This document shows, piece by piece, positions 9,759 to 54,429 of a stretch of DNA of 54,557 bases (its first letter is position 1; each line of letters opens with the position of its first letter). Both the position numbers and the translations under genes were made by a program. The notes under the pieces are model-generated. The model was not told where the DNA came from, ran no database searches, and saw only the letters and a program-made list of their open reading frames with translations. Source of the DNA: Escherichia phage mEp044; the sequence record PP180004; one strand, written 5' to 3'.

Positions 9759-10406
9759 ATGAAAACAAAATGGTATGACTTAGCAAAACAACTCATGCGG
9801 GCGCAGGGCATGAGCCAGGATTCATTGGCTGATCTTATGGGGATAACCAAAGGCGGCCTTTCTCACTGGTTGAACGGTCGCCGTGAGCCGAATCTTGAAG
9901 ATATTGCGCGGATCATGCGGGCGCTTGGGCGTCGGCAGTTCACTGTCACACATGATGGAATGGTCATTGATGATTCTGTTTCTAACACGTTGCCGGGAGC
10001 GCCACCGCGTGATTTAGGCAGTTACCCGGTTGTTGACTGGAAGGATGTAGTAAACAATATGGAAGATGCAAGGCGATCAACATTACCACACGTTACGACT
10101 AGCGTTATTTGTTCAGATGATAGTTATTGGCTGGTAGCTAAAGGCGAATCAATGAACGCGCCGCAAGGGTTAAGCATCCCGGCGGGTACTATGATACTTG
10201 TTGACCCGCACGCGCCAGCTATTGACGGCAAGCTCGTTATAGCCCAACTGGAGGAAGGGCAGACGCCTACGTTTAAACAGTTGATTATTGATGGAGGCCG
10301 AAAACTTTTGCGTTCACTTAATCCGTTGTATCCGCCGATCCCTATGAATCCAGAATCAAAAATCATTGGCGTGGTTGTTGATGCGAAGATCGTAAACCTG
10401 CCATAA
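9759..10406 (+). CDS. cI: CI-type repressor (HTH plus LexA-like S24 peptidase domain)
   Basis: 215 aa; N-terminal HTH; C-terminal AKGESM ... K motifs of S24 autopeptidases. Confidence 0.9.
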   Translation: MKTKWYDLAKQLMRAQGMSQDSLADLMGITKGGLSHWLNGRREPNLEDIARIMRALGRRQFTVTHDGMVIDDSVSNTLPGAPPRDLGSYPVVDWKDVVNNMEDARRSTLPHVTTSVICSDDSYWLVAKGESMNAPQGLSIPAGTMILVDPHAPAIDGKLVIAQLEEGQTPTFKQLIIDGGRKLLRSLNPLYPPIPMNPESKIIGVVVDAKIVNLP

Positions 10407-10436: not shown

Positions 10437-10529
10437 GCCTGAAAAACACCAAAACGTAAACAGAAAACGTGTTTTATCATTTAAATATCAATGACATATA
10501 AAATATTTTAAAAAAGTATACAAAATGGA

Positions 10530-45920: not shown

Positions 45921-48900
45921 ATGAGTAGCGGCGGCGGCAAAGCCAAAACACCAACATTATTAAACGATAACCTGTATCATAAACAGTTTTATCGTGTTTT
46001 AGACATTCTCAGCGAGGGGCCGATATACGGCCCGGCAAACCAGAATGCGCCATTAAACAACGTAATGCTTAATGACACGCCTATCACTGACGCAAACGGA
46101 AACACATCAATTCCTGGGATTAGTATAGCCTGGCGAAACGGCACGGCTGACCAATCGCCGATTAATGGTTTTAATGCCATCGAATCAACCGTTATTGTCA
46201 ACGCAAAGGTAACTCACGACACACCAATAATAAGGACTGTTTCAGATCCAAACGTTACCCGCGTAAGGTTAAATCTTGGCGTTGATGCTCTTGTTCAGTC
46301 AGATGATGAGGGCAATCAATATAATACATCCGTTATGTTGATGGTTGATGTTAAACCGTCAACATCTTCTACGTGGTCGCTGGTTAAAGATATACACATT
46401 GGTCCCGGTAAACAAAGCGGCGAATATCTGGAAGCTCACATTATCAAAGCGCCGGATGAAAAGCCGTTTGATATTCGCGTTCGTCGCGCAACGGCAGACA
46501 GCAAAAGCGATCTTCTTCGTAATGATACGCGGTGGAGTAGCTACAGCGAAATAATCGACGATAATTTATCTTATCCTCATACCGCTGTTGCTGGCGCGGT
46601 AATTGACCATGACCAGTATACTGATACTCCTACCCGTACATATCACCTGCGCGGGCTGATTGTTGATGTTCCTGATAACTACGACCCGGAAACGCGCACG
46701 TACTCAGGTTTATGGCTTGGTGGCTTTAAAAAAGCGTATACCAATAACCCTGCATGGCTTTTCCGGTATCTGGTGAAAAATGAACGCTTCGGGCTTGCCC
46801 GCCACGCTGGTTACGTTGATGTTGACGACGGAGCATTATATACGCTTTCTCAATACTGCGACCAGTTGGTAAACGACGGTTACGGCGGCTTTGAACCACG
46901 CATGACGCTTAATGCTTACATCACGGAGCAAATGAGCGCACGAGACTTGCTGGATAACATTGCAGGTATGTTCCGTGGTATCGCGTTATGGGACGGGCAA
47001 CGCCTTACTGTGATGATTGATGCGCCACAGGATCCAATTGCCACCATTACAAATGCAAACGTCGTTGATGGCGCGTTTACTCGTTCAAGTATCGCCCGTG
47101 CAGAATCTTACAACGCCGTGATTGTGTCATGGACTGACCCGGAAAACGGTTGGGAGCAATCAAAAGAATACGTGGCAGATGATGAACTGATCGCCCGCGA
47201 TGGTTATAACGAAACCACTTTAGAGGCGTTCGGTTGTACGTCACGCGGGCAGGCGTACCGCGCTGGCAAGTGGCTGATAGAAACAGCAAAACGCGAACCA
47301 TCAAAATTCACGTTTAAAATGGCCCGTGACGCAATTCACTTCACCCCGGGTGATATTATCGAGATACTCGACAATAACCGCGCAGGCGCTCGTTTAGGCG
47401 GTCGTATCGTGGCTAATAATGGCAAGGTGATAACGGTCGATAAGGTTGATTCTGAATATATCGCGGCTGGTGACACTATCAGTTTGCTTGATAGTGATGG
47501 CAAGTTTAAAAAACACCAGATCACCGGAGTTAACGGAAACAACATCACCCTTGCAACCGCCCCCGCATGGATTCGTAACGGGACCGTATTCGCTGTGTCA
47601 ACTGAAGCGGCAAGACCTGTTCTGTGTCGAATTATCAGCGTAGCGGAAACCGAAAATAACAGCGTGTACACCATCGAGGCTGCACAGCATGATCCGCACA
47701 AGCAGGCAGTAGTTGATGAAGGTGCAATCTTCGAGGTAAACAACGACACGCTTAATCACTTCCGCGTGCCGAACATTGAAAACCTGAAGGTGTTAAATGT
47801 TGGTTCTGAAACTGTTCAATGTCGCGCTACATGGGAAACACATACGACAACGCATCGCCTGACCTTTGAGATCCGCGTATATAATGCAGACGGTCGCGTG
47901 GTGGCAAGTTATGAAACAACGAATTACCGTTATGAATTTTATGGCCTCGAAGCAGGCAGCTACACGCTTGGTATTCGCGGTCGTAATGACACTGGCATGA
48001 AGGGCGCTGAAAGTATTGTGGATCTGGTGATTGGTGCACCATTGGCCCCTGTCGGCGTTAATTGGGTTCCGGGCGTTTTCCAGGCAACAGTATACCCGAT
48101 CAGCAAAACAACCCTGACCACTGATACGGCATATGAGTTCTACTTCTCAGGTGAAAACCAGATCACAGATCCATCAAAAGTAACCACGCTGGCGCAGTTC
48201 ACCGGGCGCGGCTACCAATGGACTTTTGGCGGCATGAACACGGGTCATACCTATTACGTTTATGTGCGCACGCGTAATGCCTTTGGTGTGTCAGACTTCG
48301 TTGAAGCATCAGGCGAACCGACTGAAAACTTCGATGAAATCAGCGACTACGTCACAAAAGACGTGATTAATTCAGAACAGTTTAAGGGGATGATTAGCGA
48401 CATTAAAGATCTTGGCGACCGCGCCGACCTTATCGAAAGCGCTACAAATGACCTTAAAACTGCTACCGACAACCTCAAAACTGCAACTGATAACCTGACA
48501 AACATCACTGACGATTTGAGGGTTGACACGGACAACCTGACAAACATCACTGACGAATTGAGGACTGATACGGACGGCCTAATCACAGAAACAGGGGCCA
48601 TAAAAGCTGATACGGACACACTGAAAAAAGAGACGGAAGATCTTTATAAAAAGGTTGGGGAAAACGCCGATGATATTGGACAGCATGAGGCAAGAATAGA
48701 TTCGCTGGAGGTATCTAGCGAAAAAGTTGGCAGTGAACTAGCACAAGCAAAAGCAAGCCTGCAAAATGCGTCATTGGCGCTTATCAATAACTCACTTGCA
48801 CAGACTAACACGCGCGTAACTCTTACCGCCCAATACAAGAAAGGTAGGACAGAGACGAGGGCTGAAATTGACCGCATTGACAACGTTATTGCTGAAGAGA

Positions 48901-51407
48901 AAAAGGCAACGGCGGAATCACTGGAAACCATCACGGCAGAAATGAACACGATGGATTCTAACCTTAAAGGTCAGATCTCAAGCGTGGAACGTGCAGTGGC
49001 TGACGAGGCCAGCGCACGCGCAGAAGCCATTAACGGTGTGAACGCATCAATAAGCAATCTAGACAAGAAAACAGACGCCAGCATCAATAGACTTGATCAA
49101 GCTATTGCAGACGAAACGACCGCCCGCACACAGGCAGTCAGTGACGTTAACGCGAGTATCTCATCGCTAGACAAGAAAACTGGCGCCAGCGTGAAACGCT
49201 TGGATCAAGCGATTGCAGACGAAACCAGCGCAAGAACTGAAGCTATCAGCGGAGTGAACGCATCAATTTCCACGCTTGATAGCAAGGTAACAAGCAATGT
49301 AACGCGCATAGATAAAGCTATTGCAGACGAAACGAAGGCACGCACTGACGCAATCAGCGGCGTTAATGCAAGTATTAGCACACTCGAAGGCAACACCAAT
49401 TCAGAAGTGAAACGCCTTGATCAAGCAATAGCTGACGAGACTAGTGCCCGCACACAGGCTATCAGCGGTGTAAATGCTTCAATAAGCAATCTTGAAAGCA
49501 AAACCGACGCCAGCGTTTCCCGTCTTGATAAAGCAATAGCAGATGAAACGCAGGCAAGAAGTGCTGCAATAACAGATGTTAAAGCTGATTTAACAACACT
49601 CGAAAACAGCACAAACGCCAGCGTCAAACGTCTTGATCAGGCAATTGCCGACGAATCAAGTGCCCGCGCTGAAGCAATATCAGGCATCAATGCAGAGATT
49701 GGCAACATTGAAAATAATGTTGACAAAAACAGCGATGATATAAATCAGACAAAAGCAAGCCTGCAAAACGCGTCTATCGCGCTTATTAACAACTCAATCG
49801 CTCAAACAAACACGCGTGTTACGCTTACGGCCCAATACAAGAAAGGCCGCAAAGAAACCAACGCGCAAATTGACCGTATTGACAATGTTATCGCTGAAGA
49901 GAAAAAGGCTACAGCGGAAGCGGTTAGCGTGGTAAAAGCATCGATCACGGATCTTGATAAGAAGACTGACGCGAGCGTTTCCCGTCTCGACAAGGCTATC
50001 GCAGACGAAACAAGCGCACGCAGCGAGGCTATTAGCGGAGTAAATGCCTCAGTGTCAGCGCTAGACAAGAAAACGGATTCAAACATAAGCCGTCTTGATA
50101 AAGCCATTGCAGATGAGACAAGCGCAAGAACTGAAGCTATCAGTGGAGTGAATGCAAGTATTATCACTCTTGAAAGCAACACTGAATCTGAAGTTAGCAG
50201 GCTGGATCAGGCAATTGCCGACGAATCAAGTGCCCGCACCCAGGCTATAAGCGGAGTGAACGCATCAATTTCCACGCTTGATAGTAAGGTGACAAGTAAC
50301 GTAACCCGTATTGACAAGGCAATTGCAGACGAAACGAACGCCCGCACTGACGCGATAAGTAGCCTTAATTCATCGCTTACCAGTACGATTAACTCGAAGG
50401 TGTCTGAGGTATCAACGGCGCTTTCTACGCATGAAGCATCAAGCGCAGAAAAATTTAGCCAGATCTCAGCGTCTTTCGATTCTGTAAATTCAAGTATTAC
50501 AGAATGGTCGCAGGCTATGGCAACGGCTGACGAGGCATTATCAAGCAAAATTGATCAGCTAACAGTAACCGTTAACGGGAACACGACAGCAATAGAGACA
50601 ACATCGAATGCGCTAACCGATTTCAAGGGTAACGTTGATGCGTCATATTCCATCAAGCTGGCAACAGATAACAACGGCATGAAGTACGCTACAGGTATGT
50701 CGCTTGGCCTGACTGGTAACGGCACAAACTTTCAATCGCAGTGTATTTTCCTTGTTGACCGCTTCGTATTAATGACCGCAGCAAACGGCACATATACAAC
50801 GCCTTTCTATGTATCTAATGGCGCTATGTATGTGAAAGAAGCGTTTATTAAAAACGCATCAATAGGAGAAGCTAAAATTGCAAACGCCGCAATCACATCA
50901 GCCAAAATTGCACAGCAGATACAGTCAACTGAATTTGTTAAAGACTCAAAAGGTTGGATGATTAACAAAGATGGGTGGGCGGAGTTCAATAGCGTTACGG
51001 TGAGGGGGACTGTGTATGCTACGGACGGTAAGTTCTCCGGTTCGCTTGAGGCGAAAACCTTTATCGGTGATGTTGCGAATATGTATACAGGAGGTGACGT
51101 TAGTAGATTAAATGATGGTGTGCTAGAAAAAACAATCACATACAACGATACATCAAGTGCAGCACATAGTAGACACATCTGCGTTATGGCAAACGTCAAA
51201 GGTTTTGGTGGCTGCACGATAAACATTGGAGGTTCAGAAAAAAACCTTGCTATGAATGGAGATGAGCGTCTTGTCATGCATTCAGCGGCAATAACTACCA
51301 AGAGCGTTACAGTTAAAATTAAGGTATCCGCTCAAAATAGCAAGGGTGCATATATAAATTCGCCGACCGTCATTGTGTCGCGCGGTTCTGGTTCATTCTC
51401 AGGATAA
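45921..51407 (+). CDS. J: tail tip/host specificity protein J with an internal coiled-coil repeat expansion
   Basis: 1828 aa; N-terminal ~1000 aa resemble lambda gpJ (ISEGPIYGP, WSSYSEIID, FGCTSRGQAYRAGKWLIETAK); repeats at about aa 930-1500. Confidence 0.9.
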   Translation: MSSGGGKAKTPTLLNDNLYHKQFYRVLDILSEGPIYGPANQNAPLNNVMLNDTPITDANGNTSIPGISIAWRNGTADQSPINGFNAIESTVIVNAKVTHDTPIIRTVSDPNVTRVRLNLGVDALVQSDDEGNQYNTSVMLMVDVKPSTSSTWSLVKDIHIGPGKQSGEYLEAHIIKAPDEKPFDIRVRRATADSKSDLLRNDTRWSSYSEIIDDNLSYPHTAVAGAVIDHDQYTDTPTRTYHLRGLIVDVPDNYDPETRTYSGLWLGGFKKAYTNNPAWLFRYLVKNERFGLARHAGYVDVDDGALYTLSQYCDQLVNDGYGGFEPRMTLNAYITEQMSARDLLDNIAGMFRGIALWDGQRLTVMIDAPQDPIATITNANVVDGAFTRSSIARAESYNAVIVSWTDPENGWEQSKEYVADDELIARDGYNETTLEAFGCTSRGQAYRAGKWLIETAKREPSKFTFKMARDAIHFTPGDIIEILDNNRAGARLGGRIVANNGKVITVDKVDSEYIAAGDTISLLDSDGKFKKHQITGVNGNNITLATAPAWIRNGTVFAVSTEAARPVLCRIISVAETENNSVYTIEAAQHDPHKQAVVDEGAIFEVNNDTLNHFRVPNIENLKVLNVGSETVQCRATWETHTTTHRLTFEIRVYNADGRVVASYETTNYRYEFYGLEAGSYTLGIRGRNDTGMKGAESIVDLVIGAPLAPVGVNWVPGVFQATVYPISKTTLTTDTAYEFYFSGENQITDPSKVTTLAQFTGRGYQWTFGGMNTGHTYYVYVRTRNAFGVSDFVEASGEPTENFDEISDYVTKDVINSEQFKGMISDIKDLGDRADLIESATNDLKTATDNLKTATDNLTNITDDLRVDTDNLTNITDELRTDTDGLITETGAIKADTDTLKKETEDLYKKVGENADDIGQHEARIDSLEVSSEKVGSELAQAKASLQNASLALINNSLAQTNTRVTLTAQYKKGRTETRAEIDRIDNVIAEEKKATAESLETITAEMNTMDSNLKGQISSVERAVADEASARAEAINGVNASISNLDKKTDASINRLDQAIADETTARTQAVSDVNASISSLDKKTGASVKRLDQAIADETSARTEAISGVNASISTLDSKVTSNVTRIDKAIADETKARTDAISGVNASISTLEGNTNSEVKRLDQAIADETSARTQAISGVNASISNLESKTDASVSRLDKAIADETQARSAAITDVKADLTTLENSTNASVKRLDQAIADESSARAEAISGINAEIGNIENNVDKNSDDINQTKASLQNASIALINNSIAQTNTRVTLTAQYKKGRKETNAQIDRIDNVIAEEKKATAEAVSVVKASITDLDKKTDASVSRLDKAIADETSARSEAISGVNASVSALDKKTDSNISRLDKAIADETSARTEAISGVNASIITLESNTESEVSRLDQAIADESSARTQAISGVNASISTLDSKVTSNVTRIDKAIADETNARTDAISSLNSSLTSTINSKVSEVSTALSTHEASSAEKFSQISASFDSVNSSITEWSQAMATADEALSSKIDQLTVTVNGNTTAIETTSNALTDFKGNVDASYSIKLATDNNGMKYATGMSLGLTGNGTNFQSQCIFLVDRFVLMTAANGTYTTPFYVSNGAMYVKEAFIKNASIGEAKIANAAITSAKIAQQIQSTEFVKDSKGWMINKDGWAEFNSVTVRGTVYATDGKFSGSLEAKTFIGDVANMYTGGDVSRLNDGVLEKTITYNDTSSAAHSRHICVMANVKGFGGCTINIGGSEKNLAMNGDERLVMHSAAITTKSVTVKIKVSAQNSKGAYINSPTVIVSRGSGSFSG
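48741..50400 (+). repeat. in-frame coding tandem repeats inside J: about eleven 108-bp (36-aa) units in two blocks, each block headed by a ~180-bp duplicated segment (48741 and 49750)
   Basis: repeated peptide LDQAIADETSARTEAISGVNASIS...; attgcagacgaaac recurs every 108-109 bp. Confidence 0.8.
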
Positions 51408-51414
51408 AAAACAA

Positions 51415-51440
51415 CCCCGCATCGCGCGGGGTTTTCTTTT
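51415..51440. terminator. bidirectional terminator after J
   Basis: hairpin ccccgc-atcgc-gcgggg with T-runs on both strands. Confidence 0.6.
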
Positions 51441-51687
51441 AGTAGTTGGCTACACAGTTCGACGGGCTACCGATGCGGCGCATGTTGTGATCGAGTTCAT
51501 GACACCATTGCCCAGTATACGGCAGTTTTTCAGTGTCATAGACAAGATGACCGCTGCCATCATAGACAACATCCTGTGGAATTACTCCGCTATTAGGCAG
51601 GTTATGCAATGCGGCCTCTTTGTCAATAGCGCAACCAGTAAGAGCAACAGCCGCAGAGAACAAAACCACTTTGAACACGTTTTTCAT
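51439..51687 (-). CDS. lipoprotein (signal peptide plus lipobox LTGC), antisense between J and the tail fibre; Cor/Lom-position candidate
   Basis: 82 aa; MKNVFKVVLFSAAVALTGC lipoprotein signal. Confidence 0.55.
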   Translation of the reverse strand: MKNVFKVVLFSAAVALTGCAIDKEAALHNLPNSGVIPQDVVYDGSGHLVYDTEKLPYTGQWCHELDHNMRRIGSPSNCVANY

Positions 51688-51864
51688 TTTTGAATCCTCA
51701 TTCTTGTTGGTTCATCCGGTTTACCCGGTGGTTTAAATATCCGACAAAACCACATTTCGTATATTGATATAAGTCAATAAATACATTTTGTGTAAGCAGA
51801 AAATGCAACATAGATCACAAAATGGTAGAATTATTCCGTTAATTAACATAATGGAGTCATTGCG

Positions 51865-54429
51865 ATGATTTACACAACTGGAACAATTGCCATCAACGGC
51901 AACACTGTTAAAGGCACGGGAACAGACTTTTCCGCGCCGCTTTCTCTCATTCGTGTAGGGTGCACGCTCATTGCTATCAGCAACCCCATCCAGATCTTTA
52001 CCGTTACTGAAATCAAGAGCGGCACTGAACTATCAGTGACGCCAGCGGCTAACCCTGCAATTGCTGCCGGGACAAAATTCAGTATTCTACTTTCTGACTC
52101 GATCTCAGTTGATGGGCTTGCCCAGGATGTAGCAGAAACGCTTCGTTTTTATCAGGAAAAAGAAGATGAAATAACAAGCGCAATAGATGGCAGCAATATT
52201 GGCTTGGGGCCAGAGCCGCGAGATTGCACCGATATATCAGGCGATCCGTCTTCTTACGTTGGCTTTTTGCGCATAAAGGAAACGGCTAAGGGTTTTCCTT
52301 CTGTAGCGGCTGGTGAATCATTTTTGAGTGGATTCATCTGTCAACGAGATGTCACGCCTTCATATACAGGCGTCTTTGTCGGTTGGGCTACGCGATCACT
52401 TTATACTTATACATGGGTAGCCACATCAGGTCCGCAATGGACACGCAACGCAAGAAAAGATGAAGTTGACAGGCTTGTCCAAAGAACAGGAGAAACGCGC
52501 GTATGCTCTCAAAACGCAAATAAATTCCTTACTGTCTATGATTCTGGATCGTGGGGTTATTACGATTCAGAGGCCAGCAAATGGCTACCGCTTCCAATTC
52601 TTGCTGGCGGCACTGGCGCAACATCGCTTGATGATGCAAAAAAAAATCTTCAGATCCCTGAAGGCGGTCTATCAAAAACGATAACCATAAGCGCCCCATC
52701 AGGTATGGAAGATGGAAAATACTATCCTATAATCGTGTTTACTGGTGAAACAAACGGAGGAGCTTTTCCGTGTCCGGTTGAAATTGTAACTGTTGGCGGA
52801 CCTTCCACCTCAGAAATGAACAGCAATACATTTTCTGGTTATGTCAGATGCGGTGGATGGTCAGACATCAGAAATATAGCGTATGGGTACTATACTGCAT
52901 ACGAACCAAAAGAGGTTGCTATACTTTGCATTAAGGGATCAACCAAAGACTACGCTCAACATATAGCTTTTTATGTAAGCAATAAAGCGTTTCCAATTAA
53001 AATCCAAGTAGGATATAAAGCGCAAGTATTCGTGCCCACTAGTGATTATTCTTTGGGAACAAACGGGGTAAAATTCAAATTTGGCGTGTCAACATCAGAA
53101 GAGGGTAACACAGAAAACAGCGTTACTAATATACTTGATTTTACTGGTGGCCAATCAGGTTTTTACAGTAACGCATTATTCAGGCAAGGATACTCAACAA
53201 ATTTTGCGCTTACTAATAAATTAAACTCAACAGATCCGTTTATTGTTACGCTGCCGTCATTCACAGTTTTAGGGTCTATTAATTGCACTAAAGGACTTAT
53301 TGCATATGGCGAGGACGTAACCAACAGGACATTTGTATCACGGCGCACCAATGCAGCAGCCAATGAGACGCTTGATCAGTCAGAGTTCAGGGCAGCAGAA
53401 AAAGCCGCGCAAATTGTTGTTCGTGACATGACTGCATCAAACCATATGTTTTTTAATTTTAATGGTGATGGTACTTTTAATGCACCAGGAGGTCTTGTAT
53501 CACAGACTGGCACTGACTGGAACGGTCAGCAGTCAGATAACATAAACAGGTTTAAGCCGATTGCTGGTCAAATAAATACACCGGAAAATAATGTTGTTTA
53601 TGGCGGTTTTCATGTCGGTTTTAGCGGCAACTACGCAACCCAGTTCGCTGGGCGCAATTCAAAATTCTACGCCAGAAGTTTTGAGGCAGGAGTAGACAAA
53701 GGATGGTGTCAGCTTGCAACGCTTAACAATGAGCTTGTGCAAAGGTGGACGGGATACCAACAATTTAAATCAACGGATTTTTTTGCTGATACTTTCACAA
53801 GAAAAATAACTCTAGCCGTCTCAAATTCATCGGCAAGAAATGCCGAGCTTTATTTGTGGGGCGCTGAAAACCGTCCCACCGTACTTGAGTTCAAGATAAA
53901 GGATCCAGACACAGGTAGTGGGCTTTCATGGGCTTTTTACGCACAGCAAAACCAGGATGATTCATGCCAATTTAATGTTAACGGTGCTGTAAACTGCACA
54001 ACAGTTAACCAGTCATCTGACCGCGACTTGAAAGACAACATTCAGGTTATAGGTGACGCAACTGAAGCCATCCGTAAAATGAACGGGTACACTTATACCC
54101 TCAAGGAAAACGGCCTGCCTTACGCTGGCGTTATCGCTCAGGAGGTCATGGAGGCACTGCCGGAAGCTGTGGGGTCGTTTACTCATTACGGTAAAGCATT
54201 GCAAGGACCGACCATTGACGGCAACGAGCTACGCGAAGAAACGCGTTATCTCAATGTTGACTACGCCGCAGTAACTGGTTTACTTGTCCAGGTTGCACGA
54301 GAAACGGATAACCGCGTCACCGAACTGGAAGAAGAAAACGCAAGCCTACGCGCTAACATTGCCGCAATGGATGAGCGTATCGCAAAACTTGAAGCGCTTG
54401 TCAGTAAGTTGACAGAAGGCGAAAAATAA
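51865..54429 (+). CDS. tail fibre/tailspike with C-terminal intramolecular-chaperone (peptidase S74) domain
   Basis: 854 aa; C-terminal SSDRDLKDNIQ ... LNVDYAAVTGLLVQ and coiled-coil end typical of S74 autoproteolytic chaperone domains. Confidence 0.75.
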   Translation: MIYTTGTIAINGNTVKGTGTDFSAPLSLIRVGCTLIAISNPIQIFTVTEIKSGTELSVTPAANPAIAAGTKFSILLSDSISVDGLAQDVAETLRFYQEKEDEITSAIDGSNIGLGPEPRDCTDISGDPSSYVGFLRIKETAKGFPSVAAGESFLSGFICQRDVTPSYTGVFVGWATRSLYTYTWVATSGPQWTRNARKDEVDRLVQRTGETRVCSQNANKFLTVYDSGSWGYYDSEASKWLPLPILAGGTGATSLDDAKKNLQIPEGGLSKTITISAPSGMEDGKYYPIIVFTGETNGGAFPCPVEIVTVGGPSTSEMNSNTFSGYVRCGGWSDIRNIAYGYYTAYEPKEVAILCIKGSTKDYAQHIAFYVSNKAFPIKIQVGYKAQVFVPTSDYSLGTNGVKFKFGVSTSEEGNTENSVTNILDFTGGQSGFYSNALFRQGYSTNFALTNKLNSTDPFIVTLPSFTVLGSINCTKGLIAYGEDVTNRTFVSRRTNAAANETLDQSEFRAAEKAAQIVVRDMTASNHMFFNFNGDGTFNAPGGLVSQTGTDWNGQQSDNINRFKPIAGQINTPENNVVYGGFHVGFSGNYATQFAGRNSKFYARSFEAGVDKGWCQLATLNNELVQRWTGYQQFKSTDFFADTFTRKITLAVSNSSARNAELYLWGAENRPTVLEFKIKDPDTGSGLSWAFYAQQNQDDSCQFNVNGAVNCTTVNQSSDRDLKDNIQVIGDATEAIRKMNGYTYTLKENGLPYAGVIAQEVMEALPEAVGSFTHYGKALQGPTIDGNELREETRYLNVDYAAVTGLLVQVARETDNRVTELEEENASLRANIAAMDERIAKLEALVSKLTEGEK

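Follow-up and report, generated by a model that had tools for sequence, protein, structure and literature searches.

The antisense gene lpp of Escherichia phage mEp044 and its very probable role in the exclusion of LamB-dependent phages

The stretch of DNA analysed here (the window) comprises the 54,557 nucleotides of Escherichia phage mEp044 in sequence record PP180004. Between gene J (45921..51407, plus strand) and the side tail fibre gene (51865..54429, plus strand), the product of which possesses a Peptidase_S74 chaperone domain, lies lpp, a gene antisense to both. The list of open reading frames places it at exactly 51439..51687 on the minus strand, with an ATG start and a product of 82 aa beginning MKNVFKVVLFSAAVALTGCAIDKE, and a previous reading of this DNA from its sequence only had the coordinates, strand and length exactly right. 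The protein is an exact match to WWQ70608.1, which carries the GenBank label 'hypothetical protein mEp044_110'. The features of the gene and of its left flank are as follows.

50985..51407, plus strand: C-terminal tip of J (last 140 aa plus stop), which accompanies the Lpp family; from tip alignments
51413..51433, both strands: bidirectional intrinsic terminator common to J (plus) and lpp (minus); from a two-strand terminator scan
51439..51687, minus strand: lpp (mEp044_110), prolipoprotein, 'type-C Lpp' superinfection-exclusion protein; from WWQ70608.1, PHROG 12984, pN/pS and Lpp010
51442..51633, minus strand: mature Lpp, 64 residues, 7.1 kDa, acidic (pI 5.3); from alignments A2 and A3
51628-51630, minus strand: +2 residue of Lpp, Ala; from the sequence
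51631..51642, minus strand: lipobox L-T-G-C (L16-T17-G18-C19), Cys19 being the predicted lipidated N-terminus
51634..51687, minus strand: signal peptide, residues 1-18, with n-region MKNVFK and h-region VVLFSAAVA; rule-based
51695..51699, minus strand: Shine-Dalgarno sequence GAGGA, 7 nt before the lpp ATG; read from the sequence and invariant in five relatives

The gene lpp is genuine and under strong purifying selection. Its pN/pS ratios against four related phages are 0.04-0.17, with changes that are overwhelmingly synonymous, and residues 7-82 of its product match positions 5-77 of the 77-position PHROG 12984 'lipoprotein' profile (E=1.8e-26); together these observations argue against a chance ORF. 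The n-region of the signal peptide has a charge of +2 and the hydrophobic core of nine residues has a mean Kyte-Doolittle value of 2.6. On a purely rule-based assessment the protein possesses the charged n-region, the h-region, the [LVI][ASTVI][GAS]C lipobox and the +2 residue other than Asp that mark bacterial lipoproteins. The lipoprotein signal with LTGC lipobox that had been proposed for it is thus borne out, and Cys19 is invariant in 26 of 26 aligned homologues. In these the +2 residue is Ala, Gly or Ser and never Asp, a residue which at this position would retain a lipoprotein in the inner membrane. The mature protein consists of a variable tether (residues 20-30) followed by a highly conserved core running from P31-N-S-G-V to Y82. 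Residues that are invariant or nearly so in the alignments are P31, N32, S33, G34, V35, P37, T52, E53, T58, G59, Q60, W61, C62, R71, G73, S76, N77, C78 and Y82. There are thus two further cysteines (Cys62 and Cys78) in the mature protein, along with five prolines among its 64 residues.

The terminator common to J and lpp is a GC-rich hairpin flanked by an A-run and, opposite it, a T-run, which begins 5 nt from the J stop and, on the other side, 5 nt from that of lpp. Its minimum free energies are -15.5 and -18.9 kcal/mol (z of -4.1 and -5.3), and it is also annotated in phages mEp554, mEp010 and mEp013. The gene had been described as lying between bidirectional terminators, which is correct for this one; on the 5′ side of lpp (51688-51864), however, the scan found nothing terminator-like and the leader folds no better than its shuffles (z -0.17). 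A CCGG-TTTAC-CCGG hairpin at 51715-51727 was considered as a second terminator and rejected, being too weak, missed by the scan and located in a leader that folds like shuffled sequence. The features identified in the region between lpp and the side tail fibre gene are these.

51782..51793, plus strand: motif copy 1, TACATTTTGTGT, which reads ACACAAAATGTA towards lpp; from a motif scan
51803..51831, plus strand: candidate sigma-70 promoter of the side tail fibre gene, ATGCAA-17-TAGAAT with a TG extension; from a position weight matrix (PWM) scan
51815..51826, minus strand: motif copy 2, TACCATTTTGTG, read as CACAAAATGGTA in the direction of the tail fibre gene; unchanged across six related phages

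No convincing sigma-70 promoter was found on the minus strand upstream of lpp by either a consensus scan or the PWM scan. The best minus-strand PWM candidates, ATGACT-19-AATAAT (score 7.6) and TTGACT-17-TGTGGT (6.4), were rejected, both falling below 7.8, the median of the best scores in random 240-nt windows from the same genome. The candidate promoter of the tail fibre gene has a PWM score of 11.2, in the 90th-95th percentile of the 240-nt windows of the genome, and is absent from the stricter consensus scan. Expression of the maltoporin LamB depends on CRP and MalT. A CRP-like site in this region, TGTGA-N6-TTGCA (minus strand, ~51805-51820), was rejected as it has a single good half-site, with ~0.35 occurrences of TGTGA expected by chance.

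The intergenic DNA at 51688-51864 is far more conserved than the synonymous sites of lpp, with ~4% as against 28% divergence between the window and mEp010. Homology to phages mEp021 and mEp515 begins at ~51781 and extends rightwards, so that motif copy 1 forms the left edge of the stretch common to these phages, while the cassette to its left differs. As this homology starts at motif copy 1 despite the different cassette, the motif pair is placed within what looks, from the alignments, like a conserved divergent control region (51688-51864). A small ORF on the minus strand (51733..51849) is annotated in relatives as a 'hypothetical protein' of 38-43 aa (mEp554_112, mEp010_117, mEp013_105 and a CDS of phage MagusPhagus). 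It was rejected as a gene, its annotated length varying (117, 120 or 129 nt) and the mEp021 homology boundary at ~51781 cutting through it, and it is probably a gene-caller artefact in conserved regulatory DNA.

Two copies of a 12-mer motif had been reported upstream of lpp. Both are present, and they form an inverted pair with arms CATTTTGTG (51784-51792) and CACAAAATG (51816-51824) that lie 23 nt apart, copy 2 overlapping the spacer and -10 element of the candidate tail fibre promoter. The 12-mer itself, allowing two mismatches, is not enriched in the genome (15 occurrences against 8.2 +/- 3.2), but its core is: the 10-mer ACAAAATGTA was observed six times with 0.18 expected, and the 8-mer ACAAAATG 23 times against 4.2 +/- 2.1 in shuffles, an approximately five-fold excess. 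The 23 sites of the 8-mer span positions 1364-51824 and include five inverted pairs less than 100 nt apart (9713/9765, 17943/18008, 24219/24301, 38791/38817 and 51784/51817). One of these pairs is found at the start of a CI-like repressor gene (9759..10406), and a lone copy at 10520 abuts the -35 element of an early promoter, TTGACT-N17-TATATT. A role as start-codon context was rejected as the sole explanation, plausible ORFs starting at only ~4 of the 23 copies. The ACAAAATG sites could be operators of a phage regulator, scattered over the genome; no operators were defined in the paper describing the mEpimmI phages.

Of the deposited genomes, those of mEp554, mEp010, mEp013, mEp021 and mEp515, all temperate gut coliphages of the mEpimmI group, and that of MagusPhagus are closest to mEp044. 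When 50,697 phage records were searched in translation, full-length Lpp homologues with 51-60% identity were also identified in virulent phages of the Seuratvirus, Nonagvirus, Dhillonvirus and CSP1-like groups. The family numbers 26 proteins among 5.8 billion, with three real clusters among 1.84 billion representatives, and 26 of 5,426 complete E. coli genomes carry it under the label 'hypothetical protein'. Every locus inspected (KurtStettler, EP23, 9g, CSP1C and MagusPhagus) has the same order of J, terminator, antisense lipoprotein and lateral tail fibre. The gene had been expected to be of the lysogenic-conversion kind, with presumed expression from the prophage. Since its homologues are also found in strictly virulent phages, the family serves the lytic cycle as well and is not defined by lysogenic conversion.

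Homologues of Lpp were found only beside one family of J tips, the tip being homologous in all carriers. Over the last 140 aa, the identity to the mEp044 tip is 91% for mEp554, 86% for CSP1C and 62-63% for KurtStettler and 9g, whereas over the full tip length it is 27-31% for EP23 and MagusPhagus. The same comparison of the last 140 aa found no similarity between the mEp044 tip and those of lambda or mEp021. The linkage between tip and lipoprotein is loose at the sequence level, as the lipoprotein of MagusPhagus is 90% identical to that of mEp044 while its J tip is only 31% identical. Four BASEL phages (Bas21-24) have an Lpp homologue and all four use LamB as terminal receptor; Bas14, Bas15, Bas20 and Bas25, which use LptD or FhuA, were absent from the Lpp matches among the 50,697 phage records. 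A LamB-specific C-terminal domain of GpJ unlike that of lambda has also been described independently in a 2026 preprint.

Over ~480 nt (51060-51540 of the window), from the J tip through the terminator into the 3′ part of lpp, mEp044 shares 85-86% identity with CSP1 and CSP1C, virulent phages of Cronobacter/E. coli, and these genomes have no other nucleotide similarity to it. As this identity stands without other DNA similarity, it suggests a recent horizontal exchange of the J tip-lpp module with CSP1/CSP1C, with one junction apparently inside lpp. Another mosaic joint, judged from sequence identity, is found where the side tail fibre gene ends: positions 53970-54350 (the Peptidase_S74 intramolecular chaperone region and the DNA just downstream) are 83-86% identical to the side tail fibre genes of the unrelated phages Ayreon and PhiR70_1. 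The J protein of mEp044 is unusually long, at 1828 aa compared with 1132 in lambda. Its residues ~800-1560 (48300-50600 of the window) consist of long imperfect coiled-coil-like repeats (...RLDQAIADETSARTQAISGVNASIS...), the number of which varies among relatives, with the J proteins of mEp010 and mEp013 having 1707 and 1504 aa, respectively. A portable module of LamB-specific J tip and exclusion lipoprotein is common to temperate gut coliphages and virulent sewage phages.

The function of this lipoprotein type has been addressed experimentally. A lipobox search of the genomes of these phages defined four lipoprotein types, of which the 'type-C Lpp' consists of the proteins of mEp010, mEp013, mEp044 and mEp554, with an A>S change at position 11 being noted (Negrete-Mendez et al., 2025, PMC11893012). 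All four phages fail on the Keio lamB mutant. In the same work, the mEp010 allele Lpp010 (gp116) was cloned under Ptac, expressed from a plasmid and assayed by spot-plating; its expression alone excluded mEp010, mEp044, mEp554 and, unexpectedly, lambda, and did not exclude mEp013, which is LamB-dependent (PMC11893012). The mEp044 protein is identical to Lpp010 at 80 of 82 residues (97.6%). The two differences are A11S in the signal peptide, the change carried by mEp044 Lpp, and V21I, the sole difference in the mature protein. The mEp044 gene has therefore already been published and the exclusion phenotype demonstrated for its near-identical counterpart. The earlier proposal of an outer-membrane lipoprotein in the lom/cor slot that excludes superinfecting phages is accordingly upheld through Lpp010, while FhuA, which had been named as a receptor to be considered, does not fit, the excluded phages depending on LamB as seen with the Keio lamB knockout (PMC11893012).

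Taken together, the product of lpp is very probably a small lipoprotein of the outer membrane that renders cells refractory to phages using the maltoporin LamB. The precursor would be exported by the Sec system, lipidated on Cys19 and cut by signal peptidase II. The Lol system would then send it to the outer membrane, as expected from a +2 residue that is Ala and not Asp, and a disulfide is probably formed between Cys62 and Cys78. The exclusion spectrum points to the receptor LamB, and not to one particular phage protein, as the target, since lambda is excluded although its J tip is unrelated to the tips of the mEp phages. It also points to a local change or masking of LamB in place of its removal or full plugging, since LamB-dependent mEp013 still plates. 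By analogy with Llp of phage T5, which binds the periplasmic face of FhuA (van den Berg et al., 2022, PMC9586334), and with Rtp45 and LptDE, a second structural precedent for binding at that face, Lpp would most likely bind its receptor from the periplasmic side and alter what the phage tip sees. The gene and the LamB-specific J tip travel together as one module. In the virulent relatives, and probably in mEp044 too, its product would spare the progeny from being wasted on infected cells and debris.

Phage mEp013 escapes Lpp010 even though it is LamB-dependent and encodes the same lipoprotein. Between mEp013 and mEp044 the J tips are 78% identical (last 140 aa) and the lipoproteins 96%. From these identities the J tip seems to evolve much faster than the lipoprotein, which would be expected if tips are selected to evade exclusion.

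The transfer of the Llp mechanism to LamB is not straightforward. LamB has no plug and no known allostery, such that an Llp-type mechanism may not transfer, and van den Berg et al. called it unclear how lipoproteins could act on a receptor without allostery, although for phages that target LamB, Bas23 among them, the same authors consider that they 'likely do have SE lipoproteins', and they had pointed to the Bas23 member of this family as the probable LamB exclusion factor (PMC9586334). An AlphaFold2 model of Lpp built from a 20-sequence alignment, the family being too small to yield a deeper one, had a mean pLDDT of 58 and a pTM of 0.30 and was too poor for a fold search. A tentative reading, which we consider doubtful as a whole, joins two elements: that Lpp disables LamB, a plugless and non-allosteric trimeric porin, in a structural manner unlike that of Llp with FhuA or Rtp45 with LptDE, and that the ACAAAATG sites control both lpp and the tail fibre gene. 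In it, Lpp could, for instance, insert itself into the LamB channel from its lower side or cap it there, with a selectivity for epitopes that some J tips, such as that of mEp013, evade. If this were true, the ACAAAATG operators would couple receptor blockade to the lysis-lysogeny state.

It is also conceivable, if unlikely, that Lpp is flipped to the cell surface and there sterically masks the extracellular loops of LamB to which J tips bind. Such a topology would suit a plugless porin without known allostery, it was raised by van den Berg et al. for lipoproteins acting against non-TonB-dependent receptors (PMC9586334), a proportion of the small lipoproteins of E. coli is able to reach the surface, and the escape of mEp013 would fit epitope-specific masking. 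Against this, binding is at the periplasmic side in both of the complexes solved, Llp-FhuA and Rtp45-LptDE, and the latter includes the non-TonB-dependent LptD. There is also no recognisable surface-export signal in Lpp, and its sequence does not separate the two topologies.

Less probable again is that Lpp blocks a step after adsorption, such as tail-tip insertion or the passage of DNA across the envelope, or that it lowers the amount of assembled LamB. The published assay scores plaque formation only (PMC11893012) and several phage Sie proteins do act at DNA entry, but mEp013 needs LamB and yet is not excluded, which speaks against depletion of LamB or a general block of the route through it, and Lpp is co-inherited with the receptor-binding J tip and not with any inner-membrane function. 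Moreover, the outer-membrane anchor predicted from Ala at +2 would place Lpp at the receptor. That lpp encodes an Rz1-type o-spanin or an accessory lipoprotein for virion assembly, or that it is a spurious ORF opposite the late operon, is scarcely credible, as the small size and outer-membrane lipoprotein signal of its product (shared with o-spanins), the 'hypothetical protein' label in GenBank and the inclusion of a virion structural protein in the equivalent cassette of mEp021 are set against strong purifying selection, full-length conservation in five phage lineages always beside J and never in a lysis cassette, the lack of any adjacent or embedding Rz-like partner ORF for a gene isolated between J and the tail fibre gene, only five prolines in the 64 mature residues, and the direct exclusion phenotype of the orthologue Lpp010 (PMC11893012).

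The reading retained is therefore that of a receptor-level exclusion lipoprotein directed at LamB. Publications of 2021-2025 already cover the gene family along with its position, receptor context and exclusion phenotype, and the present analysis adds no new biology to them; its practical value lies in correcting a 'hypothetical protein' annotation and in assigning the gene to the portable module described above. With regard to phage therapy and engineering, a strain with a resident prophage of the mEp044 kind could be refractory to many, but not all, users of LamB, as the escape of mEp013 shows.

Among known systems the nearest is Lpp010 of mEp010, which has the same position, terminator, upstream region and LamB context, the mEp044 protein being itself listed as type C (PMC11893012). 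The difference is that the allele cloned and tested is that of mEp010, two residues apart. Next are the putative LamB exclusion lipoproteins of virulent phages (bas22_0021 of KurtStettler, gp69 of 9g and that of Bas23), which share the lipobox, the two conserved cysteines, the antisense slot and a homologous J tip. Full-length similarity to these proteins and the antisense slot beside a homologous J tip place mEp044 Lpp in PHROG 12984 and in type C. The lipoproteins of the Seuratvirus, Nonagvirus and Dhillonvirus phages differ in belonging to virulent phages, with a putative role in exclusion during the lytic cycle in place of prophage conversion, and in having a shorter tether after the lipid anchor (CGNGLNTGK, compared with CAIDKEAALHNL in mEp044).

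The slot between the J and side tail fibre genes is occupied by other genes in related phages. In mEp021 it holds Lpp021 (gp81, 'type-A Lpp'), likewise an exclusion lipoprotein and with the same upstream region from ~51781 rightwards. Unlike lpp, it is co-transcribed with a virion structural protein gene (gp80), and it excludes OmpA-dependent phages. The mature proteins are unrelated, with a profile comparison aligning the signal peptide only. The mEp021 antisense cassette (1302-2455 of the mEp021 locus, equivalent to 51439-51780 of the window) consists of gp81 and gp80, the latter annotated as a virion structural protein of 311 aa. By analogy with the loci of T1- and Rtp-like phages that combine a receptor-binding protein with an exclusion gene, gp80 may serve as a receptor-binding protein of its own that recognises OmpA. 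In lambda the slot holds Lom, which differs in being an annotated outer-membrane protein of 206 aa encoded on the J strand and not a lipoprotein. To our knowledge, Lom does not exclude phage. Searches of Lpp found no Ail/Lom-type beta-barrel match in Pfam, in which the sole match at E<=10 was LPAM_1 (residues 8-20, E=0.12, below threshold), and remote homology searches of Pfam, NCBIfam and PADLOC gave only signal-peptide noise.

The Cor proteins of T1, phi80, N15 and HK022 resemble Lpp in being small outer-membrane lipoproteins with two further cysteines that act in superinfection exclusion at the level of the receptor, and T1 cor, like lpp, lies antisense just downstream of J and the receptor-binding genes and ends at a shared terminator. 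However, Cor targets FhuA whereas the probable target of Lpp is LamB, and hhalign aligned only the signal-peptide residues 1-23 of Lpp with T1 Cor, with no Cor-annotated PHROG being matched. The designation 'cor-type' given to lpp previously is thus apt for its position and architecture, but not for its mature domain, in which similarity to T1 Cor was not detectable by hhalign. Llp of T5 and Rtp45 of Rtp are also comparable, these being lipoproteins of 6-7 kDa with one disulfide that are encoded beside the receptor-binding protein. They bind FhuA and LptDE, respectively, at the periplasmic face and change their extracellular loops, and are the template adopted here for the mechanism of Lpp, although the receptors differ, LamB having neither a plug domain nor a lateral gate. 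Neither was among the matches of the Lpp profile to all PDB chains at E<=10, which comprised two chance matches (E~0.7). As its mature domain has no detectable similarity to those of Cor, Llp and Rtp45, Lpp is on sequence comparison an analogue and not a member of these families, with which it has an architecture in common: a mature lipoprotein of 55-65 residues with one probable disulfide, encoded antisense beside the receptor-binding determinant and, as in T1, ending at a shared terminator.
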